Source: an uncultured Candidatus Saccharibacteria bacterium (lineage in GTDB: Bacteria; Patescibacteriota; Minisyncoccia; Phycocordibacterales; UBA5272). Taken from it: a stretch of 64,000 bases of DNA. The translations under genes were made by a program, and so were the position numbers. Within the stretch, counting starts at the first letter, position 1, and the number at the start of each line of letters is the position of its first letter. The DNA lies in assembly GCA_964369115.1 (NCBI GenBank), contig CAYJED010000001.1, positions 3,732 through 67,731 of the forward strand, read 5' to 3'. Under the pieces are notes generated by a model, which was given only the letters and a program-made list of their open reading frames with translations, had not been told where the DNA came from and ran no database searches. Positions 11,466-25,789 of this stretch are shown here, piece after piece.

Positions 11466-11804
11466 ATGCTACAACCTCACTTTCAATTACGAGGAACTCA
11501 TACAACAATTATTGAGCCAGCATACCTTATTATAGATGTTTTAAAAAAGGCACGAGAGCTTGGTCCAGTTAAACTTGCTCCAGGGAAAATAGAGGCTCGT
11601 GTCGGAGCAAAATCTTCTTCGGTAAAACTTAAACATATAAACAATGAATTGTATGAACTAGTTATAACTCATAATAGTGCGCGCCAAGAGTTTAAACTTT
11701 TCAGCACAGCCTCATTTAATGATTTTGAAAAATGTATTAAGAGTTCAAAAAAGCTACGCGATTGGAATATTAACTATCTCGACATGAGAGATACACATAG
11801 TTAA
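11466..11804 (+). CDS. Hypothetical protein
   Basis: 112-aa ORF with no recognisable domain. Confidence 0.4.
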   Translation: MLQPHFQLRGTHTTIIEPAYLIIDVLKKARELGPVKLAPGKIEARVGAKSSSVKLKHINNELYELVITHNSARQEFKLFSTASFNDFEKCIKSSKKLRDWNINYLDMRDTHS

Positions 11805-12481
11805 CTACCGTAGAATGCTTCAGGTGCCCTCGCTTCAAAAGAGTAACTTTTTCCATTTAGTGAAAAAGAAATTTGGGAAGCATGTAACATAATTCTCCCA
11901 TCTTTTTTTGTTGCACCATATGCAACGTCACCTACTATTGGGTGGTTAATATGAGCCATATGAGCTCGAAGCTGATGGGTGCGTCCTGTGTGTGGCGAAA
12001 GAGTAACAAGAGTTATATCTTTATATCTTTGTGTTACCACAAGTTCAGTAAGAGCAGGGAGAAGTTCTCCGCGAGGATTCTTCGGGCATGCAACATTTTT
12101 ATACTCTTTTTTGTTTCTTCCAAGTGGAGCATCGATTATTATTTTTTCTTCTTGAATAACACCTTCCACAAGAGCTACATATGTTTTTTTTATTTTGTGT
12201 GACGTAAAAAGTGAAGCAAGTTCATCGTAGGTGGTTTTATTTTTTGTGACAACAAGTACCCCTGAAGTATCTCGGTCAAGTTTATGAACAAGGCCACCTA
12301 GGTTAACCACTCTTCCGTCTTGAAGTGTTTTTTTATTTTCAAATGAAAAACACTCTGGGAAGTTTTTTTCTATTTCATCGATAAGTGTTATTTCATCTGA
12401 ATGATCAAAAGGATGCACAACGATACCGGAAGGCTTATTTATAATAATAAGATTTTTATCTGAGTGGAGAACGGTAAACAT
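11801..12481 (-). CDS. RluA-family pseudouridine synthase
   Basis: Catalytic motif HKLDRDTSGVLVV and C-terminal HTGRTHQLRAHMAHINHPIVGD. Confidence 0.85.
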   Translation of the reverse strand: MFTVLHSDKNLIIINKPSGIVVHPFDHSDEITLIDEIEKNFPECFSFENKKTLQDGRVVNLGGLVHKLDRDTSGVLVVTKNKTTYDELASLFTSHKIKKTYVALVEGVIQEEKIIIDAPLGRNKKEYKNVACPKNPRGELLPALTELVVTQRYKDITLVTLSPHTGRTHQLRAHMAHINHPIVGDVAYGATKKDGRIMLHASQISFSLNGKSYSFEARAPEAFYGS

Positions 12482-12596
12482 ATTACATGTATGCTACGGC
12501 ATAAGGTGCGCTTGTGCAACTGTACACATAAATAGATTGTTTGTTTTACGGTAAGGTCTACACTTACTGTAGAAGCTTCACTTAAAAGGGGTTGCC

Positions 12597-12962
12597 ATGA
12601 AAAAGCTCTTTTTACTCGCCGTTCTCTTTCTTTCGGGTGTCTTAAACGCTTTTGAAATCAATGAAGAGACTGTAAAGAAGATCCCTCCGAAAGCTAAGTA
12701 CCCGTGTCCGTCTTCGAGGTACGTCCTCTCATACTGTGAAGTAAAAGTGGATCCGGGTCTTGGAGAAGGGGAGCCTGTTCGTCGTAGAGATCAGATCGCT
12801 ATCGCTCGCAAACTTTGCCTCTCCTTCCCTTCTTTAGGTGAAAAGGAGTTTAGTTCTCGAGAAGCAGACGGAGACGGAATAGTTTTTGTTTGCAGGTTTA
12901 ATCGAGAAGATTTTCTGAGGTGGTGGACCAAAGAAACATATCTACTTACTCAGGGTGAGTAA
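12597..12962 (+). CDS. Small secreted hypothetical protein
   Basis: Signal peptide MKKLFLLAVLFLSGVLNAFE. Followed by a hairpin terminator at 12969-13000. Confidence 0.5.
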   Translation: MKKLFLLAVLFLSGVLNAFEINEETVKKIPPKAKYPCPSSRYVLSYCEVKVDPGLGEGEPVRRRDQIAIARKLCLSFPSLGEKEFSSREADGDGIVFVCRFNREDFLRWWTKETYLLTQGE

Positions 12963-13052
12963 AAATTTTCAACCGCTTGCATCAAGCGGTTGCTGTTTTC
13001 TTTGTGCTGTGATAGTTTGAAAGTGGATTTTTCCTTAAACAAGGAGAAGAAA

Positions 13053-13373
13053 ATGTCATCACGAAGTGAAGTGCGAACACAAATTGCTCACTTAGAAAAA
13101 GCTGGAACTACTGAATTTGATGGTCGAGAGTTTTGTTGGCTGCTCACTTCTTTTGTGGAAGCCGGACTTATTCCTTCTGATTTTGGTTACACAGAAGATT
13201 ATTTAGAGTCGCTCCACTTGCGTTTCGTCGACTCACTTTCTGATGAGGCTTTGCGAATGCATATTTTTAACATGAGTACGTTGCTCGCAAAGAAGAGTGG
13301 CACACCACCACAAGACCCTCTTTTGTGGATGATGTGGCTTCTTGATCCAGAAAGAACATTTCCACTTGAGTAA
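13053..13373 (+). CDS. Hypothetical protein
   Basis: Internal ATG with an AAGGAGA RBS 6 nt upstream. Followed by a bidirectional hairpin terminator at 13384..13414. Confidence 0.45.
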   Translation: MSSRSEVRTQIAHLEKAGTTEFDGREFCWLLTSFVEAGLIPSDFGYTEDYLESLHLRFVDSLSDEALRMHIFNMSTLLAKKSGTPPQDPLLWMMWLLDPERTFPLE

Positions 13374-13412: not shown

Positions 13413-14036
13413 TTAAATAAAAAGTTTAGCTTGTTTATATTTTCTTTCTAAAAAAATTGTACTATTTTCGTAAGATTTTTTTAGTAAAATTATACTATCT
13501 TTTTTGCCGTAAGTGAGAACATGCCAACTCTTTTCTTTTTGTGAGTATATCCAGCCACCTTGTATCGTCGACTCTTTTTTTATTTCCGAATGTATCCATT
13601 CTAAGAACGCTTTACTTGCTGAAGCTAATCTTATACGTAGCTGAGGGTGGTTGCTTTCTCTGTGGTAAAAAATATCAATATTACCATCGCCATCAATGCA
13701 CCCTCTAAGAAAGTGAAAAAAATATTTTTTTGGAATTTTAACTTTTTGTATTGTTTTAGATTTAGCTGGAGAAATTCCAAGTTCTAATAAAAATGTATAA
13801 AAGTTTTTATCTCCTATTTGTAAAACATAATACATTTTTCCTGTATTAGAATTTCTTTCTCCAATCATACAAGTAAGAAATAGGGATGTCTTTATTTTCA
13901 GGAGCAGCTCTTCATCCTTTGATGTGATCACTATATGTCTTCCGTCTATAGAAAGATTTCCATCGGTGGCAATAATCCCAATAATATAGGCAAGTTCAGA
14001 GGACCAGACTGTTGAAACTTTTTTCTTTTGTTTCAT
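13413..14036 (-). CDS. LAGLIDADG-family homing endonuclease, free-standing
   Basis: Two LAGLIDADG-type motifs (YIIGIIATDGNL and FLRGCIDGDGNI). Not embedded in an intron or intein within this window. Confidence 0.75.
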   Translation of the reverse strand: MKQKKKVSTVWSSELAYIIGIIATDGNLSIDGRHIVITSKDEELLLKIKTSLFLTCMIGERNSNTGKMYYVLQIGDKNFYTFLLELGISPAKSKTIQKVKIPKKYFFHFLRGCIDGDGNIDIFYHRESNHPQLRIRLASASKAFLEWIHSEIKKESTIQGGWIYSQKEKSWHVLTYGKKDSIILLKKSYENSTIFLERKYKQAKLFI

Positions 14037-14121
14037 TTATTCTAGTGTAGCATACTAAGGCATATAGCATATACCAAATTAAAATATCAAAAATAGCTCA
14101 ATTAAGAGTTATTTTATAATG

Positions 14122-14203
14122 TGCCCAGGACTGGACTTGAACCAGCACGCTCGAAAGCATTAGTTCCTAAGACTAACGTGTCTACCAATTTCACCACCTG
14201 GGC
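14122..14203 (-). tRNA. tRNA-Leu (anticodon TAG)
   Basis: Acceptor GCCCAGG/CCTGGGC, anticodon loop CTTAGGA, long variable arm, T-arm GCTGG-TTCAAGT-CCAGT. Confidence 0.85.
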
Positions 14204-14353
14204 GTATATAGTTGTGTACAATTTTGAAAACTGTTTGCGAATTATAGCGTACTTTTTGCTTTTTTGCGAGCAGTGCTACAGTTTTTGGGCAAAAGAAAAA
14301 CCCCCGAAACGATTAAACGTTTGACAGGGGTTGTGCTTCATCTTGCGTGAAGC

Positions 14354-15553
14354 TTAGGCGGTTGCGGCCTTGTTGGCCGAAGCCTTGTAGGCCACCACCA
14401 GTTCGGCGAGCTCGGCACCATCGATGCCTGCGCTCTTGAGCGAGGCGATGTATTGCGGCAAGCCGGAGGTCGGTGCCTTGGGCTCGGCCGGTGCTTGCGC
14501 AGCCGGCACTTCGGTCCTGGGAGCCGTAGCAACGGTTTTCGGAGTCGGCCGATTGCCGCCACGGCCGAGGAAGCCGACATGCTGATGTTCGTGGATGCTG
14601 TGCACTTTGCGGGCGTCATGCAGACGTTTGCAGGCTGCCATCATCGCGTTCATCAGTTGCTGGCGCTCGAGTTCTTCGAGTCCGCCGCCGTTCAAGTACT
14701 TGAGAAGTTCACCGGCGGAAGCGATCATCTCACCCTGGCTCATCTTCTCTTCGTCGAAGAACTCGGGGAACTGACCTCGGCTGCACTTGAGGTAGGTGCC
14801 GTTCAGCGTCTTGGCGGCAAGCGGATGCTTGTTGCCGATGTGGCCGATGCCGACGACGATAGTCGAGTGACGGGTGTCATCGAACATGAACCCGAGCACG
14901 ATACCGTCCTCCATCGTTTTGCCGAAGCGAACCTCGACACGATTCTTGTCGCTCAGTTGCTCGAGCAACGAAACGTTGGCCGATGCGCGGCTCCAGGCGG
15001 TGGCCTCTTCACCGATGAACTTGAACTTCTCGCGTTCGCTGGAAACGAATGCCGAGAGGTTTCCGAGGTCTTCCTCGCTGAGCTGTTCCCGGATGTAGCT
15101 GATCATCAGCTGTTGCTTCTGACCAGCCTTGCCCGGGATGGTGCTCACGAAGTTGTTCTTCGCGACCTGCCAGAACATCACGAAGATGTTCTCGTTGGTG
15201 CGCACGTGAGGTGCGAACACCACCGCCGTCGAGCTGACCAAAATCAGCCGATCAGGCGCCAGGTACTCAAACTGGCTTTCGCCAGCAAAGTCCACGCGGA
15301 CACCCGTTCGGAGGGTGCCCTCGATGATCGCCTCGACCATTTCGGTCCAAGAAATCACCGGAACAGGGATGGCGAGGTTGTCGAGCTGATCGGAGATCGA
15401 TCCGCGGCTGCCGCGCCTTTCGCGACGATCCTTGGATTCTTCGGATTGACGTTGTCGTACTGCGATGAGCTTGGAAGTGCCGGGGCCGTTGGAGCCACTG
15501 TTCTTGCCAGCTTTCTTGTTGGCGCCGTTGGAAGCATTCTTGTTGGAGGCCAT
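14354..15553 (-). CDS. Hypothetical protein encoded in a high-GC island; likely of foreign origin
   Basis: About 400-aa ORF (MASNKNASNGANKK...) with protein-like composition and strong GC3 bias. The 398-aa ORF on the opposite strand looks like a GC-shadow ORF. Sharp GC transitions at about 14335 and 15610. Confidence 0.55.
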   Translation of the reverse strand: MASNKNASNGANKKAGKNSGSNGPGTSKLIAVRQRQSEESKDRRERRGSRGSISDQLDNLAIPVPVISWTEMVEAIIEGTLRTGVRVDFAGESQFEYLAPDRLILVSSTAVVFAPHVRTNENIFVMFWQVAKNNFVSTIPGKAGQKQQLMISYIREQLSEEDLGNLSAFVSSEREKFKFIGEEATAWSRASANVSLLEQLSDKNRVEVRFGKTMEDGIVLGFMFDDTRHSTIVVGIGHIGNKHPLAAKTLNGTYLKCSRGQFPEFFDEEKMSQGEMIASAGELLKYLNGGGLEELERQQLMNAMMAACKRLHDARKVHSIHEHQHVGFLGRGGNRPTPKTVATAPRTEVPAAQAPAEPKAPTSGLPQYIASLKSAGIDGAELAELVVAYKASANKAATA

Positions 15554-15781
15554 GATGTGGACCTTTCTGCGCAATGCGCTTTTTGGAAACAGAAACAGAA
15601 TGAACAAGCTTGTGTACCGGAGGTTATTTCCTCACAATCACATGTATAAGTATACACAATTTTACAGATTTGTCAAGTATTTTCTTGTAAGAAATATACA
15701 TTTTACCTTTATTTATAAGCTTTATTTGTCTATTTTTACCTTTTTACGTAGGATGGAAAGTGTTGTTCTTTATGAAATAAG

Positions 15782-16621
15782 GTGCCTACGATGAGTATGC
15801 CTGTTAATCTCTTTGTGGTACTTCACGGTGAATCGCTTGGTAATCTTGTGAATCGACAAGGTTCACAAGGTAATCCTGTCTTTCTTGAAACTCTTAAACA
15901 AACACATACTGCACATTGGCCACTTTCGAATAAAGGCCGAGAGCAAGCAGGGCTTACGGGTGTTTTTTTGAATGATTTATTTAACAGCGAGAATATCATT
16001 TTTGATCAAGCGTATGTTTCAGCTTATGCTCGAGCACTTGAAACTGCTGCTAGGCTTGAAATTGCGCGATGTGCTTGGCGTGTCGATTCGCGGATTGTTG
16101 AACGAAATTGGGGAGACTTAGACGGTCTTTCAGAAGAAGAAAGACAAGGTCGTTATAAGGATGTAATGAAGATGCGTCATACGGAGCCGTATTTTTGGAA
16201 TATTCCAAACGGTGAACCTTTTGATCGTTTTGTTGTGCGTATTCGTGACTTCGTTGATTCGTTGTACCGGGCAGGTGTGCAAAATGTGCTTGTTGTATGT
16301 CATGGTGAAGTGATGAAAGCACTTCGGGTGATACTTACTGGTATGACACCAGAAGAGTATTCTCTGATGGAGTTTTCGGATGACCCGCTTGTACGCATTC
16401 ATAACTGCCAAGTTGATCACTATACGCGTAATAATCCAAATCAAAGAGAAAAGGTAAAAACACTTTCCTGGCTTCGTGTGTATCGCCCGTCTGAAGAGCT
16501 GTACGATCACACTTCTTCGGTTGCTGTTGATTGGACACCTATCAAGCGTCGCACCTACGACAGTCACGAACTTTTCGTTATGTCAGGAGAGATGTCAAAA
16601 GATTTGAGAGATTACGTGTAA
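15782..16621 (+). CDS. Histidine phosphatase superfamily protein (phosphoglycerate mutase-like)
   Basis: N-terminal VVLHGES motif and VVCHGEVMKAL. Followed by hairpin terminator 16632..16670. Confidence 0.6.
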   Translation: MPTMSMPVNLFVVLHGESLGNLVNRQGSQGNPVFLETLKQTHTAHWPLSNKGREQAGLTGVFLNDLFNSENIIFDQAYVSAYARALETAARLEIARCAWRVDSRIVERNWGDLDGLSEEERQGRYKDVMKMRHTEPYFWNIPNGEPFDRFVVRIRDFVDSLYRAGVQNVLVVCHGEVMKALRVILTGMTPEEYSLMEFSDDPLVRIHNCQVDHYTRNNPNQREKVKTLSWLRVYRPSEELYDHTSSVAVDWTPIKRRTYDSHELFVMSGEMSKDLRDYV

Positions 16622-16675
16622 AAGAAAAACAAAAGCCGTCCCGGTAGGGACGGCTTTCTTCTTTTTTGTTTTTCT

Positions 16676-17101
16676 CTAGTTATCCTCGAGTTCACTTTCA
16701 AGCTGTTCGTTGATAGTTTCGCATACTTGCTCTTGGTTTACAGTGAGCGTTGTTTTCTTTTTATCTTCACGAAGCAGTTTTTCAACATGAAGGCGATTTT
16801 TTTCTCCGTAATCAATTTCCACTTCAAAAAATGGAATCACTTTTACCGGAAGACGCTTCATTACGTAGTGACGCATTTCACTTCGCATACGCTTTGCAAA
16901 GTTGATTGCAGCCTCCTCTTTGTTTTCTGGAAAGACACTAATAAAAATAGTGCCGTGCTTCATGTCACGAGAAATATCAGTTCGAGTAACGGTGATCATA
17001 GAAAGGCCAGAGCTTTCACGTTGAAAGAAGTCCTGCACAATACCAAGTACCTGCTGTTCTACTTTAAGTTGGCGTTCTGTTTTTGGAATATTAGCGTCCA
17101 T
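16676..17101 (-). CDS. rbfA: Ribosome-binding factor A
   Basis: RbfA KH-like core (RTERQLKVEQQVLGIV...ITVTRTDISRDMKHGTIFIS). Immediately downstream of infB. Confidence 0.85.
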   Translation of the reverse strand: MDANIPKTERQLKVEQQVLGIVQDFFQRESSGLSMITVTRTDISRDMKHGTIFISVFPENKEEAAINFAKRMRSEMRHYVMKRLPVKVIPFFEVEIDYGEKNRLHVEKLLREDKKKTTLTVNQEQVCETINEQLESELEDN

Positions 17102-17115
17102 AGTTTTTCTATTTT

Positions 17116-18645
17116 TTAGATGCGAAGTTTTTCAACAGTAATTGCTTCTACGAGATCACCTCCAACCATTTCAACTTTACCTTCAATCATGAGACCACAT
17201 TCATTACCTTCGATAACAGTCTGTGTCTTAATTTTTTGTGATTGAAGTTCTACGATGCGCCCTTTACCAAGCTCTACACCACGACGACTGATACGAACGA
17301 GAGCACCATTCTCAATACGACCAGTTTCTACACGTCCACCGATAACATGTTTATCTTTTTGTGAACTAAAGGTGCGGAGAATTTTAAGTGTCCCTAAGAT
17401 TGTTTCTTTTTCTTCAAAAGGAAGACGGTCCTCAACAACAGTATCAAACCATTCAGAAAGTTTATAGATAATATCAAATGTCTCTGGTTTGAGATTAAAG
17501 CGCTCTGCTTGATCACGAGCTTTTCCGTCCATCTTTACTGTAAAGCCGATAATCACTGTCTTTTCATCGGATGAAGCAAGCATGATATCACCTTCTGTGA
17601 TGTTTCCAACACCTTCTGCGATAATTTTAATTTTTACATCATCGGTCTCACGCTTCTTAAGCTCTTTTTTTACTGCATCAAGTGTCCCAAGTGAATCAGA
17701 TTTAATAACAACAGGAATAACAACACGAGCATTACGGTAGATACGTGGATCAAGTACTTGCTTTACTGTATTTGCTTTTGTTTCACTCTGAAGTTCCTCC
17801 ATAAGCTTTTTATCAGATGAAGAAACAAAGATTGCTCCAGATGCTGGGATACTATCAAATCCTGTTACTTTTACAGGCTGTCCTGCGTGAGCATTTTTAA
17901 TAGGGCGTCCTGCAAAGTCTTCCACGATACGGATAGGGGAAAGTGCTACACCTACCACAACAGCGCCTGCTGCCGGAAGTGTTCCATCTTTAAGGACAAG
18001 CGTTGCAGAGATGCCACGCTTAGGATCAACAAAACTTTCAAGCACAATACCAGTAGCGTCCGTGTGAAGATTTGCAGTAAGTTCGTGCATATCTACAAGA
18101 AGAAGAAGTGTTTCAAGAAGGAAATCAATTCCTGTGCCTTGCTTTGCAGAAATTTCTACACATGGAATGTCTCCACCGTACCCTTCAATGTAAATACCGT
18201 TTTCTACAAGAGAGTTTTTAGTCTTCTGAATGTCTGCGCCTGGTTTATCAATTTTGTTGATAGCAACAACGTAAGGGAGTTTACGAGCGTCGATTGTTTT
18301 CCATGCTTCTAATGTCTGGGCTTTTACTCCATCTTCTGCAGAGACTATTAAGATAGCAATATCTGCAATTTCTACACCACGTTCACGCATACTTTGGAAT
18401 GCAGCGTGCCCTGGGGTGTCGAGGAAAGTAATAGGGCGAGTAGTCCCGTCTCCGAGTTTATGAAGTACTTCGTACGCTGAAATACGCTGAGTGATACCAC
18501 CAGCTTCTCCGTCGACGACATTTGATTTTCTAATATAGTCAAGGAGTGATGACTTTCCGTGATCAACGTGGCCAAGTACTGCGATGACTGGCTGACGTGG
18601 TGATGAGGAAGTAGTACCTCCTTGTGTTGTAGGCTTTTTTGACAT
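17116..18645 (-). CDS. infB: Translation initiation factor IF-2, short form of 509 aa
   Basis: G domain (GHVDHGKSSLLD, DTPGHAAF, NKID) plus IF-2 beta-barrel domains. Confidence 0.92.
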   Translation of the reverse strand: MSKKPTTQGGTTSSSPRQPVIAVLGHVDHGKSSLLDYIRKSNVVDGEAGGITQRISAYEVLHKLGDGTTRPITFLDTPGHAAFQSMRERGVEIADIAILIVSAEDGVKAQTLEAWKTIDARKLPYVVAINKIDKPGADIQKTKNSLVENGIYIEGYGGDIPCVEISAKQGTGIDFLLETLLLLVDMHELTANLHTDATGIVLESFVDPKRGISATLVLKDGTLPAAGAVVVGVALSPIRIVEDFAGRPIKNAHAGQPVKVTGFDSIPASGAIFVSSSDKKLMEELQSETKANTVKQVLDPRIYRNARVVIPVVIKSDSLGTLDAVKKELKKRETDDVKIKIIAEGVGNITEGDIMLASSDEKTVIIGFTVKMDGKARDQAERFNLKPETFDIIYKLSEWFDTVVEDRLPFEEKETILGTLKILRTFSSQKDKHVIGGRVETGRIENGALVRISRRGVELGKGRIVELQSQKIKTQTVIEGNECGLMIEGKVEMVGGDLVEAITVEKLRI

Positions 18646-18743
18646 ATGATACCAGCAATTATACCACAGATTGTCAATAAAATAAAGACAGTAAAATAAA
18701 AAGCAAAGCTTGTACAGGGAAGTATCTCTTTGTGTCTAGCTCT

Positions 18744-19238
18744 TTATTTTTTGGCCTCTTTGTGAGCATCTTTTGCTTCTTTAAGTACTTGCTCTTCTTC
18801 TTCAGTTAATTCGTAGGTGCTTGTGTAGTTCTGTACAGGTTTTGCAAATGTATTATTTCTTTCATGGGCGTGAAGAGAAGAAATAACAGCCCCGTTTCCT
18901 TCTTCGTTAACAAGAGCTATTGAAAAACTCTGATTTGAGCCATTTTGGTCAAATGCTTTATAACGAACGGTGGAAACATTTCTAATAGCGTGAGACATTT
19001 TCTCCTGGAGAGTAAGAGCATGAGCTGAGATGAGTTCGTTACGCTCTTCGATTTTTTTAACACTTTCAATACATTTTTCTATGGTGTCTTCCAGAGATGC
19101 GCCGTTTTTCCCACGGGTAAGATGTGTTACTTTTCTATCCAAGTACACGATGTATGCAAATAAAATAACGATAACAAAAGAAAGAATAGCGATTGGGTCA
19201 GTTACTAAAGATAAGAGGGGAATTGGGCCAAATGACAT
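18744..19238 (-). CDS. DUF4446-like membrane-anchored protein
   Basis: Start set at the internal ATG (MSFGPIPL...). N-terminal TM helix followed by a coiled region. The family assignment is from memory. Confidence 0.45.
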   Translation of the reverse strand: MSFGPIPLLSLVTDPIAILSFVIVILFAYIVYLDRKVTHLTRGKNGASLEDTIEKCIESVKKIEERNELISAHALTLQEKMSHAIRNVSTVRYKAFDQNGSNQSFSIALVNEEGNGAVISSLHAHERNNTFAKPVQNYTSTYELTEEEEQVLKEAKDAHKEAKK

Positions 19239-19534
19239 GGAAGAAAGAGCGGTTATGGATATGAAAAATAAATCTTTTATATCTCCGAGTGTAGCATGTG
19301 AATGGTTACATGCTGTGAATAAAAAAGTATGTAAAATAATGCTGCAGTGCTGATCTGTGGAAGTACTTGACAAAAAATATGTATATGCTTACTAGTTATT
19401 ACCATCGTCGAAAAGTGACCAGTAACCCTGGAAGCTTTGGTCAGAAGTTTGACCACTTTGATGGCCTGTGTGGTGTGCAGCCTGCGAGGCTGCCCCATAA
19501 GTTCTTTTCATCAACCACGATCTAGGAGATCTGC

Positions 19535-19654
19535 ATGAAGCATCCGCCGAACGCCAAGAGCGCCAATCTGTACAGCCTGATCGCCATCGCTTCCGCCACG
19601 ACCTGCGCCGGCCTGGGCGCCGACAACTCGACGTCGGCCACCGCCAGCCCCTGA
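19535..19654 (+). CDS. Small GC-rich ORF with a signal-peptide-like N-terminus; possibly the 5' remnant of a foreign pseudogene
   Basis: AGGAG lies 6 nt upstream of the ATG. GC3 is near 95%. The same frame continues open past two TGA codons to 19933. Confidence 0.2.
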   Translation: MKHPPNAKSANLYSLIAIASATTCAGLGADNSTSATASP

Positions 19655-20162
19655 ACCGGCGGCCAGCCAAGGTTGATCGCGTACTGAAGATCTGATTCTT
19701 CGGTGCCCGCCGCCTGCACGCGAAAGATGTGCGCGCACGCGCGTTCGATCAGCCTCGGCAACCGCCGCAACCGCCTGCGTTTACGCTTGCAGTTTAAGCG
19801 TGACCGCAGGCGAACGCTCTTCCAGGCTCGCCTTGGCATCATCTCGATGGTGCCGTCGCCCGGAATTCCTGTGGACCTTAGAGCATCCACTCGTCTATGC
19901 CAAGAAGGAGAACCCTTCATGACCTGGTACTAGCGAAGATCTGGCCGCGCCACAGACGTTCACAACGCCTCTGGAGGGCGTCCCTCAAGGACCAGCCCTG
20001 AAGCACTGCCGGAACTCCCTCGCGGGAAGAAAGGAATACCAACGTGGCACCTTGTTAAAGCCCTTTGTGTCTGGAAAGACCAATGAGCTACAAGGCTCGT
20101 CGATAAGCACTACTAAAGCGGCTCGGTCTCTTGAGACCAGTTACTGAAGACTCGTGCCAACC

Positions 20163-20200
20163 GCCCCCAACGTCGCAAGATGTTGGGGGCTTTCATTTTT
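20163..20200 (+). terminator. Intrinsic terminator at the end of the high-GC island
   Basis: 9-bp stem GCCCCCAAC/GTTGGGGGC followed by TTTCATTTTT. Confidence 0.6.
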
Positions 20201-20268
20201 CATAGTTGCAAGAAATATAATTGTAAAAAATTCTTTTTAAGAGTAGTATTCCAGTCAGTTCTTTATAT

Positions 20269-21336
20269 ATGGAGGCTAACATGCTTGAAAATAGTTTTTT
20301 CTCGCTTGATACTGCTAAAGCTCATCAACTCATTGATGTGCTCTATCATGCGTATGTTGGTGAGAGAGGGTTTTATGCTCATCATCATCAAGCTCATGCA
20401 CCGCAGAATGTGCACGCTCCGCTTGCACCTATTCCCACCCAAGACGATCTCTTCGGTGGGCAGTTTGAGCAGGCGATGCTCCGTGCCAAGAAATCATCTG
20501 GAAGAAAGGTTTCCGTAAAAGCTCTTACAGCTGGTTCCCTTGATCACACCAGGTGGCTTTTCTTTGCAACACTTTGTGACAGGAGGCAGGTAAGCAACTG
20601 GGTGTACGCTGCACATGAACGTTTGCACTTTGAGCATCCAGAGCTCTATTCTCATCGTGTGACGCGAATGGATCCTCATGATTTTGGTGAGATGCTTGCA
20701 CGTTACAGGGTGGGATGTCCTCGTCAGTCGGCAGGGTATTGGATACGTTCCGCAACAACTCTGTTTGAAGATTTTGAAGGAGATCCAGTGCTTCCTTTTC
20801 GGGAAAGCGGACTTACGGTTGAAGGATTTATTTCATTCAAAAAGGGGTATAGGCGTGACGGAAAATTAACCGACCCGTTCCCTGGGTATGGTTCAAAAAT
20901 TGCATCGTTGTACCTCCTTTTCCTTGCGGAAATTGGGGTGATAGCGATGCCACGCGATGCTTTCCCTGTAGATGTTCATGTACAGCGGCTTTTCTTTCAA
21001 ATGGGTGCACTCACCTTACATGAAGGAAGTGTTGTCACTAATGAACAGTGTGAGAGAGAGATTCGACCACTGATCTGCTCGTATGCGAACGAGAAAGGGT
21101 ACTGCAAGGTCGCGCTCTCACATGCCTTCTGGCTTCTTGGTCGCACACTTTGCACGAACTGTGACAAGAGAAAAGGGAAAGGTGTTAATCATCTCTGTCC
21201 AGTCTTTGAAGATTGCAAAGGAACAGCCGAAACTTCTTCGTATTTCAGAAAAGGAACATGGGGACCGATTATGTTTTTGGGGAAAAACGGAATCAAGTAT
21301 GAAAGAGATGAAGACAAACAACGTGTTGGTCGTTAA
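20269..21336 (+). CDS. HhH-GPD superfamily DNA glycosylase-like protein with a C-terminal Cys cluster
   Basis: HhH (FPGYGSKIASLYLLF) followed by FPVDVHVQRLFFQMG, which resembles the endonuclease III/AlkA catalytic region. C-terminal CTNCDKRKGKGVNHLCPVFEDC. The gene is about 48% GC, above the background. Confidence 0.5.
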   Translation: MEANMLENSFFSLDTAKAHQLIDVLYHAYVGERGFYAHHHQAHAPQNVHAPLAPIPTQDDLFGGQFEQAMLRAKKSSGRKVSVKALTAGSLDHTRWLFFATLCDRRQVSNWVYAAHERLHFEHPELYSHRVTRMDPHDFGEMLARYRVGCPRQSAGYWIRSATTLFEDFEGDPVLPFRESGLTVEGFISFKKGYRRDGKLTDPFPGYGSKIASLYLLFLAEIGVIAMPRDAFPVDVHVQRLFFQMGALTLHEGSVVTNEQCEREIRPLICSYANEKGYCKVALSHAFWLLGRTLCTNCDKRKGKGVNHLCPVFEDCKGTAETSSYFRKGTWGPIMFLGKNGIKYERDEDKQRVGR

Positions 21337-21445: not shown

Positions 21446-22519
21446 TTATTTGGTATTTTTTTGTTGAGTGCCAAGAATGATCTGAGGTGCAAGCTCTTCT
21501 ACAACCGCTTGAGCTTCCTGCACCGCTCTTGCTGCACTTCCGCTTGTTACTTTGCCTATAGCCTCGTGCCTGTGGAAGCGAACAACTCTTCGTACATGAT
21601 CTGCACCAGCAAGCACTGTTTGTTCAACGGTGTTTCCTGTTTTTCTCTTCATCCCTTCGACCACCTCTTGTATTTCAAGACTAAAGAGAGGTTGAGCACC
21701 TGATCGTGCCGCTGCAAGCGACCTGATGCGCTCAGATATAACCTTCGCTACCTCTTTTGGAGACTTGTGCTGTGCGATGAGTACGTACGCCCACTTGATA
21801 AGCTCAAGTGTTGAAAGTGGCGCACCATACTCTTCTTGCGCTTCCTGAAGGCGAGCAAGTTCGGTAAGGGTTGTGTAGGGGACTCCTCTCTTAAATTCCT
21901 TACTTGGCATCACAAGCTCTTGCACTTCAGTTGGAAGCGACATAAAGCGCACTGCTCTACGAATCGCTTCTGGAGTCTTCCCCATCTTTCGAGCAAAGGA
22001 AGCGAGACTCATTGAAGGGTCTATTTTCTTTGTTGATCTCCAGATGAGAGCAAAGCTTGCCGCTGACTCTTCTGGAGCAAGTTGCTCATGAAGGTTTTCT
22101 TGTGCTTGAAATTCAATCGCTTGAATAAACGAAAGATCAAAGCGCAGGTATGAGAGATAGCTATCGAGTCTTACTCTCTTACAAGCACGAAGCCTGCGTT
22201 CGCCTGCCACAAGGAAAAGGTAGTAAGCTTCTCCTTTTTCTGTGATCCTTACTGGGGTGAAGCTTCTTAGGAGATGCTTCGTTCCCCAGGTTTCGTTGAT
22301 GCATTCGAGGTACTGTAGAGCTTCCTCTTTGGAGAGAGCAACTACAACACCAGGGTTCATCTGTCCTTTGCTTTTGATGCTTTCCGCAAGTTCGTCCAAA
22401 CTCTCCTCTCTGAACTTTGTACGCATTTGCCTGAGAACAGTGATCGTTCTCACCGGAAGGTGAACCAGATGTGTTCCTTTCGGAGGTGCAGCCTTCTGCC
22501 TCTTAAGAGAGATTTCCAT
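21446..22519 (-). CDS. Second ParB/Srx-fold (ParB-like nuclease domain) protein
   Basis: LVAGERRLRACKRV ParB box and an HTH-like segment (SFARKMGKTPEAIRRAV). Distinct from the canonical parB at 1244. Confidence 0.65.
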   Translation of the reverse strand: MEISLKRQKAAPPKGTHLVHLPVRTITVLRQMRTKFREESLDELAESIKSKGQMNPGVVVALSKEEALQYLECINETWGTKHLLRSFTPVRITEKGEAYYLFLVAGERRLRACKRVRLDSYLSYLRFDLSFIQAIEFQAQENLHEQLAPEESAASFALIWRSTKKIDPSMSLASFARKMGKTPEAIRRAVRFMSLPTEVQELVMPSKEFKRGVPYTTLTELARLQEAQEEYGAPLSTLELIKWAYVLIAQHKSPKEVAKVISERIRSLAAARSGAQPLFSLEIQEVVEGMKRKTGNTVEQTVLAGADHVRRVVRFHRHEAIGKVTSGSAARAVQEAQAVVEELAPQIILGTQQKNTK

Positions 22520-23967: not shown

Positions 23968-24321
23968 ATGAAGACGTTCAGAGATCTTGTTGTTTGGCAA
24001 CGTGCAATTGATTTTGCTACGTCAATCTATGAGGTTACTTCTCGTTTTCCGAGTTCTGAAATGTATGGATTAACAAATCAACTAAGAAGAGCAAGTGTTT
24101 CTGTGTCTTCAAATATTGCAGAGGGAAGTAAGCGTGGTTCTAAAAAAGAGTTCACACATTTTTTAAGAATAGCGCAAGGGTCTCTTGCTGAAATTGAAAC
24201 ACAACTTACGATAGCTAAAAATCTTAGTTTTGTCACTAGCGATAGATCTACAGAATTACTTAATGAACTAGAATCTATTACAAAGATGCTCACAAAGTTA
24301 ATTAATACGACGAAAGAATAA
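23968..24321 (+). CDS. Four-helix-bundle protein (TIGR02436 / 23S rRNA intervening-sequence protein family)
   Basis: Characteristic sequence (DLVVWQRAIDF...NIAEG...LRIAQGSLAEIETQL). Confidence 0.8.
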   Translation: MKTFRDLVVWQRAIDFATSIYEVTSRFPSSEMYGLTNQLRRASVSVSSNIAEGSKRGSKKEFTHFLRIAQGSLAEIETQLTIAKNLSFVTSDRSTELLNELESITKMLTKLINTTKE

Positions 24322-24357: not shown

Positions 24358-24918
24358 ATGTATTCTCAAAAAGATTTTTCGCATTTACTTGGTATCGAAG
24401 GGTTAAGTGACACTCTCCTTAGTAATCATTTTACGTTGTACGCAGGATACGTCACCAACACTAATAAGCTTATTGATCTTATGAAGGAAAAGGAGGTTGG
24501 CACTCCAGAGTATGCTGAACTTCATCGAAGATTTGGTTGGGAGTGGAATGGTATGCGTCTTCATGAGCTTTATTTTAGTAATTTAGCAAAGCATGGAGTG
24601 GCGCTTAGTAATCGCGCACTTCGTCAAAAAATTGAAAGCACATGGGGCTCATATGAAAATTGGGAAAAAGAATTTAAAGGAATGGCGACCATGCGCGGTA
24701 TTGGTTGGGTGGTGCTTGGGTATGACAAGAATGACGGTAAACTCTTTAATATGTGGGTAGGGGAGCATGACGAAGGATATCTAGCTGGCACGACGCCACT
24801 TCTTGTGGTGGATGTATTTGAACATGCGTTTATGGTGGACTACGGACTTAAGCGTGCAGACTACATTGCTACTGTAATGAGTCATGTTGACTGGCATACC
24901 GTAGAAGAAAGAGTGTAA
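24358..24918 (+). CDS. Fe/Mn superoxide dismutase-family protein with a divergent N-terminal metal site
   Basis: C-terminal SOD signature region (GWVVLGYD...PLLVVDVFEHAFMVDYGLKRADYI) and the N-terminal helical hairpin. Confidence 0.65.
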   Translation: MYSQKDFSHLLGIEGLSDTLLSNHFTLYAGYVTNTNKLIDLMKEKEVGTPEYAELHRRFGWEWNGMRLHELYFSNLAKHGVALSNRALRQKIESTWGSYENWEKEFKGMATMRGIGWVVLGYDKNDGKLFNMWVGEHDEGYLAGTTPLLVVDVFEHAFMVDYGLKRADYIATVMSHVDWHTVEERV

Positions 24919-24933
24919 AAGATATACCTTTAT

Positions 24934-25299
24934 ATGTCTTATAAAGATTTTTCTTGGCTTGATTCAGTTCCGTATTCTTTTGATTTTAAAGAAGTCGGTA
25001 CATTGCGAGTAGTTATAAAAGATAGAGATGAATCTTGTAAAGAATATACTGTTCAAGATAATGTTGATTTGATTAAAGAAAGTATTGCGTCTTTGCCTGT
25101 TCATGGCGATGAGTATCTAAAGATGAATCCTGTTCAGATAACATTTGTTATTGGTTTGAAAGAAAATAATCCTATCGCTAAGATTGTCTTCTACGATAAC
25201 TTTCTTCAAGGAGAAAATACAGCCTTTTTTTCTTCAGAAGAGGTTACACATAAAGTTTTGGAATTAAAAAAGCTACTAACAGAAAGTATTAGGGAATAG
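24934..25299 (+). CDS. Hypothetical protein
   Basis: 121-aa ORF followed by a strong terminator. Confidence 0.5.
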   Translation: MSYKDFSWLDSVPYSFDFKEVGTLRVVIKDRDESCKEYTVQDNVDLIKESIASLPVHGDEYLKMNPVQITFVIGLKENNPIAKIVFYDNFLQGENTAFFSSEEVTHKVLELKKLLTESIRE

Positions 25300-25308
25300 T
25301 TAAGCATA

Positions 25309-25345
25309 AGAGCGGCGCCTACGGCGCCGCTCTTAATTTATTTTT
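25309..25345 (+). terminator. Intrinsic terminator
   Basis: GC-rich stem AGAGCGGCGCC/GGCGCCGCTCT followed by a T-run. Confidence 0.7.
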
Positions 25346-25392
25346 ACTATAAAAACAAAACCCCTTCGAAAAGGGGTTTGCGCGTTGTCACC

Positions 25393-25569
25393 TCAGAGGG
25401 TGACGAGGCTGTGTACCAATGGGTGATCCTTCACCGTTTGGAGTACGTACATGACGATCTCTTCGACCTTGAGGGTTGGATGCGTGATGTTCAGGTAGAA
25501 CACCGTGAACCCGAAAAAGACGAAGGTGATGCCGGCACTGCCAGCAATCACAGACAGAACCTTGCGCAT
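25393..25569 (-). CDS. Small membrane protein of 58 aa, hypothetical
   Basis: Internal ATG (MRKVLSVIAGSAGITFVFF...) with an AAAGGAG RBS. One TM helix. Confidence 0.4.
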   Translation of the reverse strand: MRKVLSVIAGSAGITFVFFGFTVFYLNITHPTLKVEEIVMYVLQTVKDHPLVHSLVTL

Positions 25570-25789
25570 GGAGACACTCCTTTCGCGGAAGAAAAAAGAA
25601 ATAACTACTGTATATAATATAGCATATTTAGTACACTTTGTCAAGTTGACGAAGGGGGTATTTTTTGCGAAGGTAAGTATATCCAGCTACGATTGTACAC
25701 CTGCTTATCCACCACGACTGAAACCCTGTATTCTGTTACACTGTATATGTATTTGAATTGTAGGTTGTATGGTTTTTGTTTGTATTTTG

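Follow-up and report, generated by a model that had tools for sequence, protein, structure and literature searches.

This locus raises the question of how one gene of an AT-rich genome comes to have a base composition so unlike that of its neighbours. The window, i.e., the whole stretch of 64,000 nucleotides (nt) analysed here (contig CAYJED010000001.1, from an uncultured Candidatus Saccharibacteria bacterium), has a mean G+C content (GC) of 0.393. In 200-nt steps, GC was 0.24-0.39 before position 14300, 0.55-0.655 over 14300-15599 and 0.30-0.40 after 15600, in line with the sharply bounded high-GC island described in an earlier note on this DNA. The limits of this island are those of a single coding sequence (CDS) on the minus strand (14354-15556), which encodes an orphan protein of 400 amino acids (aa) with an ATG start (MASNKNAS), and the GC excess ends at the start and stop codons. 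This GC-richness is a property of the coding sequence and of its protein family (family A hereafter), not of an imported DNA segment, and the gene is one of a class of GC-rich orphan cassettes which spans the lineage and shares an expression chassis. As for the cause, the explanation that we tentatively prefer, with somewhat less than even confidence, is an autonomous cassette whose gene is probably expressed at a very high level and whose transcript is under selection that keeps the CDS GC-rich.

Composition of the gene and of its relatives

GC by codon position (GC1, GC2 and GC3 for positions one, two and three) was 0.59, 0.43 and 0.75, respectively, as computed on the 417-aa open reading frame (ORF) that begins at an upstream TTG. 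The high GC3 previously reported for the 400-aa protein was thus confirmed, host genes ranging from 0.19 to 0.42 (typically about 0.29); just two further ORFs of the 61 of at least 100 aa in the window exceed 0.5. Third codon positions were occupied by C (0.46), G (0.30), T (0.14) and A (0.11), and the codons ACA, CCA, TCA, ATA and AGA were absent. The ratio of nonsynonymous to synonymous substitution rates (dN/dS), 0.41-0.46 versus 0.10-0.12 for IF2 and RbfA, indicates a genuine coding gene which evolves fast. Avoidance of a toxin or of restriction was also considered and dropped, as ACA and other 3-4-mers were not depleted beyond stop-codon-like words.

The opposite strand of the island carries a 398-aa ORF (14453-15649, plus strand), which had been described as a mere shadow of the GC-rich gene. 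Were it a second gene, dual coding would force GC-rich codons upon the island, and of 11 gene copies examined, from 10 lineages, 6 indeed have the aligned antisense frame open throughout. However, the frame is open only because the sense gene contains no TTA, CTA or TCA codon, and the antisense product is of low complexity and rich in Arg, Ala and Gly. In homologues, this codon-aligned frame is shortened in L011 and L054 (L numbers designate related sequences throughout) and interrupted in L049 (166 codons), L055 (107) and L056 (265). These interruptions identify the ORF as a shadow, as first proposed, and make dual coding scarcely credible.

Curated libraries contained no relative of the 400-aa protein: the best Pfam match had E=0.14, PHROGs, NCBIfam and PADLOC gave no match, and PDB sequences gave E>=0.37. 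Word-indexed protein searches, with the single sequence or with a profile, recovered only the gene itself. An exhaustive HMMER search of 1.84 billion representative proteins returned 19 matches, of which one, a repetitive eukaryotic protein, is spurious. The statement that the protein has no recognisable family therefore holds for curated libraries but not beyond them, as an uncharacterised family of 18 relatives exists. With the exception of one 144-aa fragment, which belongs to the query's own cluster, these are at 24-44% identity to the query; their lengths are mostly about 350-470 aa. This orphan family is confined to one clade of Patescibacteria (candidate phyla radiation, CPR).

All members with readable flanks, in seven lineages, occupy the same interval between rbfA and rluA, downstream of infB-rbfA, hereafter the slot. 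They are P0005 (L011-L013), P0007 (L049), P0009 (L045/L051), P0011 (L056), P0016 (L053), P0018 (L054) and the L017 and L021 copies. These members have a gene GC of 0.51-0.63 and a GC3 of 0.58-0.81, versus a host GC3 of 0.2-0.4, and form islands limited to the CDS; intergenic DNA is back at host GC even between two adjacent GC-rich genes. Many relatives possess one or two GC-rich blocks immediately downstream of rbfA, and the slot genes belong to at least three families, plus further singletons. Family B (348-448 aa) is a GC-rich partner which always adjoins family A in L017, L021, L045, L054 and L056, and family C is found in L015, L029, L030, L039 and L043, with GC3 up to 0.90 (L043). Family B genes are divergent from or in tandem with family A and show an internal duplication marked by (A/S)P(Q/E)GHPM; the window lacks family B and has a histidine-phosphatase gene in that position. 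We do not claim a common origin for the protein bodies of families A, B and C, as profile-profile comparison was not significant. The genes of these families are interchangeable occupants of the slot and follow one design, with a near-consensus promoter, a leader containing hairpins, a protein N-terminus rich in K, R and G, a GCAA-loop hairpin and, after it, an intrinsic terminator.

The age of this composition bears directly on its origin. Synonymous divergence (dS) of IF2 between the window and L011 is 1.26, i.e., near saturation, and GC3 of the two cassettes is still 0.75 and 0.58, so that a single recent high-GC import cannot explain the island. The earlier note had favoured recent acquisition from a high-GC donor, which our results do not support: syntenic homologues are nearly all GC-rich within AT-rich CPR genomes, the GC excess is limited to the CDS, phage and plasmid records yielded no homologue, and the 18 relatives lack any non-CPR context. 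It had also reasoned that relatives carrying the gene at native GC would speak against recent transfer; a third outcome was obtained, the relatives holding the gene at the same non-native GC. A one-off recent transfer into this genome from a high-GC bacterium would agree with the favoured codons (GCC, GGC, CTC, ATC and AAG), which resemble those of high-GC bacteria, and with the adjacent tRNA gene. We nevertheless regard it as very unlikely, given equally GC-rich syntenic homologues in diverged CPR relatives, the absence of any non-CPR homologue context among the 1.84 billion representatives, and a promoter, leader and terminator which are native and common to other slot genes, with no attachment (att) sites.

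The sharpness of the composition boundaries could also betray an assembly chimera, joining a high-GC contig into an AT-rich genome, as had been suggested. This is refuted, and we take its probability to be negligible. Indeed, four sequencing projects yielded ten contigs, each assembled independently, that encode the protein or variants more than 90% identical to it, the order of neighbours (infB, rbfA, histidine phosphatase, the island gene, tRNA-Leu and LAGLIDADG) being shared by all of them at 96-99.9% nucleotide identity. These assemblies, a 21-kb contig among them, repeat both junctions, and other species show the same architecture too.

Comparison of strains revealed a recombination mosaic. 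The window and L003 differ by 0-1 positions per 250 nt, except in discrete tracts at 6-10% divergence (12500-13000, 16000-18750, 19750-20250, 21000-21250 and 24500-25500), which take in the histidine-phosphatase gene, rbfA and infB. In L008-L010, the 5' 200 nt of the cassette, the promoter region and most of the histidine-phosphatase gene are replaced or deleted, placing a recombination breakpoint within the 5' end of the gene. The near-identity of the cassette in the window and in L003 was considered as the trace of a sweep; this was rejected, since it corresponds to the clonal frame, the divergent rbfA and infB being recombined tracts. Between strains, 19 GC-to-AT and 18 AT-to-GC changes were counted, unpolarised numbers which do not inform on the direction of mutation. 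GC-biased gene conversion, or another recombination-linked mutational bias at a hotspot, would be in line with the mosaic tracts at 16000-18750 and 12500-13000 and with the breakpoint in L008-L010. Yet the GC excess keeps to the CDS, whereas intergenic slot DNA and AT-rich slot genes are spared (LAGLIDADG, 0.30; recombinase, 0.31-0.38; histidine phosphatase, 0.43), and the recombined rbfA/infB tract is not GC-rich. Moreover, the known effects of biased gene conversion in bacteria amount to a few percent of GC3, and we consider this explanation rather improbable.

Predicted transcription unit and mRNA structure

From predicted promoter to predicted terminator, the island appears to form one complete autonomous transcription unit on the minus strand, the two ends being consensus and fold predictions, respectively. 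The promoter found by consensus scan (15649-15676) reads TTGACA-N16-TATACT, with gtg before the -10 box, and matches 11 of the 12 positions of the sigma-70 consensus. Among the window's 58 host genes, not one shows a site of at least 11/12 within 200 nt upstream, and the whole 64 kb contains two such sites. In relatives, the same promoter is found ahead of the L028 gene and of slot genes from families A, B and C, with the consensus CTTGAC(A/T)-N16-gtgTATA(A/C)T and 10-12 of 12 positions matched. The pattern TTGAC[AT]-N13-15-[GA]TGTATA[AC]T occurred 23 times in 530 kb of non-redundant CPR sequence (both strands), each time directly downstream of rbfA, and the readable occurrences face GC-elevated CDSs. 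Outside the clade the pattern is unspecific (more than 120 matches in IMG/VR) and amounts to a generic strong promoter.

The predicted 5' leader of about 90 nt (15557-15642), delineated by single-sequence folds and by alignment of 11 leaders, comprises a 5' hairpin GAGGAAATAACCTCC, the motif TTCATT and a GC hairpin GCGCATTGCGC beside the Shine-Dalgarno sequence AGAAAGG. The same order is found in slot leaders of 70-110 nt, with a TTCATTT-type motif and with hairpins at equivalent positions whose stem sequences differ. At the other end, a 3' hairpin GCTTCACGCAAGATGAAGC with a GCAA loop is predicted by folding directly after the stop codon (14335-14353), and its core CACGCAACGTG recurs after nearly all family members, again with differing stems. 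Next comes a putative intrinsic terminator (14291-14330), composed of the stem-loop CCCCTGTCAAACGTTTAATCGTTTCGGGGG followed by TTTTTCTTTT, which a simple terminator scan missed owing to an internal bulge. A 24-nt terminator core is identical after family-A genes of three species, namely the window, L011 (46% protein identity) and L053 (28%). Promoter, leader and terminator are host-like, AT-rich and common to other slot genes.

Variants of the terminator core, GTCAAACGTT[T/A]AATCGTTTC[G/A]GGG, were also observed after unrelated GC-rich genes: in L049 (19366-19389) after a 282-aa gene with GC3 0.82, in L178 (3353-3376) after a 696-aa Band_7/SPFH gene in an AT-rich context away from rbfA, and in L024 (13048-13071) after the first slot gene (318 aa, GC 0.46). 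This recurrence suggests that the terminator is portable or that something recognises it specifically.

The coding sequence itself is predicted to be unusually prone to fold. Minimum free energies of native mRNAs were compared with those of synonymous shuffles preserving dinucleotides, and four family-A CDSs gave z-scores of -4.85 (the window gene), -2.43, -4.53 and -6.54; plain codon shuffles gave -4.4 to -7.4 for this family. Values for families B and C were -4.2, -5.8, -5.8 and -2.5, those for four typical host genes -1.4 to -2.2, and those for four other GC-rich genes of these genomes +1.0 to -2.6. Within the window gene, the first 150 nt were less structured than the shuffles (z=+3.1), and 150-nt segments starting at nt 150-400 (to nt 550) were much more structured (z down to -5.4).

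From a mechanistic point of view, G/C-ending codons would most likely be maintained in an AT-rich genome by selection that acts on the mRNA of a gene expressed very strongly. The features selected may be a 5' end left open for initiation, extensive base pairing in the body and a protection of the ends which would give the mRNA a long life. Conserved flanks would in turn let recombination between related genomes add, remove or exchange alleles. We infer both mRNA stabilisation and recombinational exchange of cassettes. Highly expressed bacterial mRNAs, such as those with ompA and S-layer leaders, are stabilised by 5' stem-loops and 3' hairpins. The cassette resembles them in its predicted long leader, 5'-proximal hairpin, Shine-Dalgarno-adjacent hairpin and strong promoter and terminator; unlike theirs, its CDS is compositionally foreign.

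A bolder version of this scheme would make the slot genes a cassette system of a Patescibacteria clade, not recognised before, in which a fixed expression chassis (consensus promoter, structured leader, basic N-terminal tail, GCAA hairpin and terminator of conserved sequence) receives swappable GC-rich orphan bodies. The basic-tailed proteins would recognise the conserved RNA hairpins, for autoregulation or even for packaging of their own, highly structured mRNA. Composition would then serve RNA structure rather than codons, and own-mRNA packaging could be likened to that of a capsid or coat protein. We hold this version to be quite improbable.

Several observations weigh against transcript selection. 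The gene is probably very strongly expressed, a judgement drawn only from the design of its promoter and leader, and RNAalifold predicted no pairs on the MAFFT leader alignment, which is not a structural one. Two moderately GC-elevated host genes also showed excess folding (z=-3.9 and -2.5), and the excess could partly reflect uneven composition within genes. The genes of ribosomal proteins S13, S11, S4, L17 and S9, together with rpoA, have a GC3 of 0.24-0.34; ribosomal-protein genes do shift towards C/G, in the same direction as the island gene, but far more weakly and in two-fold codon boxes only. Their host-like GC3 implies that such codons do not arise from ordinary translational selection in this organism. 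To our knowledge, the GC3 of 0.8-0.9 reached by some slot genes exceeds any expression-linked bias. Furthermore, GC1, GC2 and the Ala/Gly content of the island gene are raised as well, as expected from long residence under GC pressure. L055, on a short contig, is an exception among family members, with a mildly elevated GC3 of 0.40. Lastly, the patchy distribution of the family and the mobile-element genes present in some slots fit horizontal movement.

Other genes of deviant composition offer partial parallels. The morons of lambdoid phages are autonomous promoter-gene-terminator units of deviant base composition, inserted between other genes. Like them, the cassette is a single gene with its own predicted sigma-70 promoter and factor-independent terminator, differs in composition from its neighbours and is present or absent among relatives. 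Unlike them, it does not lie in a recognisable prophage (no PHROG structural or replication match among its neighbours), and one promoter-leader-terminator design is common to several unrelated genes at one chromosomal site. The "large G+C-rich" (lgr) genes of Protochlamydia amoebophila are recent paralogues of 5.6 kb with leucine-rich repeats, scattered on one chromosome (PMC2216083). The cassette genes share with them an orphan, lineage-restricted status, a GC above that of an AT-rich host and the lack of whole-length homologues elsewhere (PMC2216083). They differ in their size (about 1.2 kb), in lacking leucine-rich repeats, in their single syntenic slot across many genomes and in their common regulatory flanks.

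Deviant GC is routinely taken as a mark of recent horizontal gene transfer. In this case, it is a stable and heritable property of particular genes, which persists past synonymous turnover, is confined to the CDS and is tied to one promoter, leader and terminator design. Should transcript selection prove true, nature would here offer an unusually strong example of genomic mutation bias overridden by selection at the mRNA level, and a caution for composition-based calls of horizontal transfer in CPR genomes.

The rbfA-rluA slot and its residents

The slot is bordered by rbfA (16676-17101, minus strand; Pfam RBFA in the precomputed context, tblastn in all relatives) and by an rluA-type pseudouridine synthase gene (11801-12481, minus strand; PseudoU_synth_2 in the context tables, tblastn). 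We compared it with the loci of 31 relatives identified by IF2 (73-86% identity), all of them metagenome-assembled genomes of Patescibacteria/CPR, labelled Paceibacterota, Parcubacteria or "Saccharibacteria". The rbfA-rluA interval measures 220 bp in L020, where it contains tRNA-Leu(TAG) only, 4.2 kb in the window and 7.7 kb in L045, a range that marks it as a gain-and-loss hotspot. A homologue of the island gene is within reach in 3 of the 31 genus-level relatives. The gene is therefore accessory and lies in a true hotspot beside tRNA-Leu. This rbfA/tRNA-Leu/rluA interval is a discrete variable locus, which probably houses the most strongly transcribed accessory genes of these ultra-small bacteria.

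The most serious competitor of transcript selection, though in our opinion an unlikely one, is a GC-rich pool not yet sampled (a virus, a plasmid or another element of CPR bacteria or of their hosts) which would repeatedly feed the slot, each genome's copy being recent and its GC not yet lost. The patchy distribution in relatives and the empty site of L020 are in line with such a supply, as are a large serine recombinase, a Phage_VG64 protein and a DUF5681 protein encoded in the L049 and L051 slots. The shift of GC1, GC2 and amino-acid usage (Ala/Gly), besides the GC3 of up to 0.90 in L043, also points that way, and so do identical flanks around very different CDSs and an IF2 identity which stays flat at 79-86% while cassette identity ranges from 25 to 55%. 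On the other hand, all seven lineages with readable flanks have the gene in the CPR slot, and no member was found outside it. A tblastn search of 50,697 phage records and 72,556 plasmid records gave no match, nor did IMG/VR for the island gene family, nor a family sub-alignment search of metagenome and viral contigs. The recombinase and other mobile slot genes are themselves AT-rich (GC 0.31-0.38). Intergenic DNA at host GC and host-type promoters are not expected of a transferred GC-rich segment, and att repeats are absent.

The serine recombinase genes, present in the slot of L049 and L051 only, lie at 13091-14797 in L049 and at 11395-13032 in L051 (545-547 aa, GC 0.31-0.38), and the 3' end of the recombinase ORF overlaps tRNA-Leu(TAG) in L049.

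The tRNA-Leu(TAG) gene (14121-14203, minus strand; ARAGORN and Rfam), with its own TATAAT box, is a core resident of the slot, present in that of most relatives, including the otherwise empty L020. The position of the island gene beside this tRNA gene and a free-standing LAGLIDADG gene, as first reported, was corroborated by ARAGORN, Rfam, Pfam and PHROG. The idea that the tRNA serves as an integration hotspot was upheld in part: the empty site of L020, the variable slot and the recombinases of some relatives agree with it, but no flanking direct repeats (att) were found in the window. Direct repeats of the tRNA-Leu 3' end, proposed as possible marks of att sites, were searched for with 25-mers and 17-mers (up to 3 mismatches), and in the window only the tRNA itself and tRNA-Leu(TAA) matched. 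Nor is there an integrase or recombinase between rbfA and rluA in the window. The locus thus resembles tRNA-flanking genomic islands in its fixed position, its empty site in a relative, its variable content, its selfish genes (LAGLIDADG here, serine recombinase elsewhere) and its atypical composition. It departs from them in the window's lack of integrase and att repeat, and in a deviation which is limited to single CDSs, lies above host GC and recurs in nearly every gene-bearing genome.

Co-transfer of the tRNA with the cassette was rejected, as tRNA-Leu alleles do not group by cassette presence; the allele of the window is nearest to that of the empty-slot genome. Compared with L020, five lineages that bear the cassette (the window, L017, L021, L045 and L054) have the tRNA in the opposite orientation with respect to infB, and an inversion or an integration at the tRNA may be involved.

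Among the other residents of the slot, the LAGLIDADG endonuclease gene (13413-14036, minus strand; 207 aa, GC 0.30) matched Pfam LAGLIDADG_3 (PF14528, E=8e-13, two stretches) and the PHROG endonuclease phrog_4645 (E=4e-29), with a PF00961 match at 111-201 under its cutoff. It is free-standing, since over the whole window no Rfam intron family reached its gathering score, and the ORF, flanked by the tRNA and an orphan ORF, is neither intron- nor intein-encoded. Two small orphan ORFs of 121 and 127 aa (12597-13373, plus strand), on the tRNA-to-rluA side of the slot, matched no family in protein libraries. Neither the LAGLIDADG gene nor these two ORFs had a counterpart in the loci of the 31 relatives (tblastn). 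The LAGLIDADG gene is identical across same-species assemblies and constitutes a separate selfish insert in the slot. On the rbfA side, the histidine-phosphatase gene (15782-16621, plus strand; Pfam His_Phos_1, 1e-24; GC 0.43) is divergent from the cassette. It also adjoins rbfA in L025 and L031 and is partly deleted in L008-L010, in line with a semi-conserved slot gene.

The orphan protein and further GC-elevated features

Members of family A have in common an N-terminal tail rich in K, R and G, a GH(V/I)GxK..L motif and, towards the C-terminus, a helical hairpin (L..I.SLR.AG....E....AY) followed by a terminal [KST]A. AlphaFold2, run with the family alignment, gave a mean predicted local distance difference test score (pLDDT) of 81.5, with a core above 90. 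The model comprises two modules of beta-sheet and helix, which a helical hairpin separates, as well as a disordered linker and a hairpin at the C-terminus. A cytoplasmic location is predicted for the protein, whose N-terminal tail is basic and disordered, whose core is of the alpha/beta type and whose C-terminal helical hairpin is small. Foldseek searches of PDB and BFVD returned no significant structural relative, and comparison with defence systems, known families and folds gave no significant match in sequence or structure. What emerges is an orphan family whose fold is confidently predicted and has no known relative.

Other GC-elevated features were observed in the window. A second sharply bounded block (19450-20170, GC 0.52-0.69) lies between a DUF4446-like gene and a 355-aa gene, and its only content is a doubtful Arg-rich ORF of 132 aa (19522-19920, minus strand). 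Rfam gave nothing for this block at E<=1, and relatives showed no nucleotide similarity to it. Their DNA at the syntenic position is GC-elevated too (e.g., L051, 5403-5807, GC 0.615, with no codon-like GC pattern). The block may represent a structured RNA or one more small gene that evolves fast. Two genes of about 355 aa (20269-21336, plus strand, and 21446-22519, minus strand) have a GC of 0.46-0.47; one belongs to no family and the other has a weak ParB_N match. Their mRNAs show excess folding, with z-scores of -3.9 and -2.5 against dinucleotide-preserving shuffles.

A miniature unit in the style of the cassette is found at 25393-25644 (minus strand). Its predicted promoter, TTGACA-17-TATATT at 25644-25616, is the only other site of at least 11/12 in the window. 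It precedes an ORF (25569-25393) for a membrane-type protein of 58 aa, with a GC of 0.51-0.53 versus 0.31-0.36 in its flanks, and a hairpin terminator follows. In related genomes, isolated GC-rich genes occur in L036 (7925-8581), L026 (1601-2410) and L035 (7682-8338); their products carry signal peptides, and in contrast to the slot genes they lack excess mRNA folding; one has a GC3 of 0.97 with a host GC of about 0.45. Finally, a 117-aa gene of the window (23968-24321, plus strand) is near-identical to an L003 gene with matches to PF05635 (23S_rRNA_IVP) and PF22296 (bAvd), a four-helix-bundle family which includes the accessory protein of diversity-generating retroelements.

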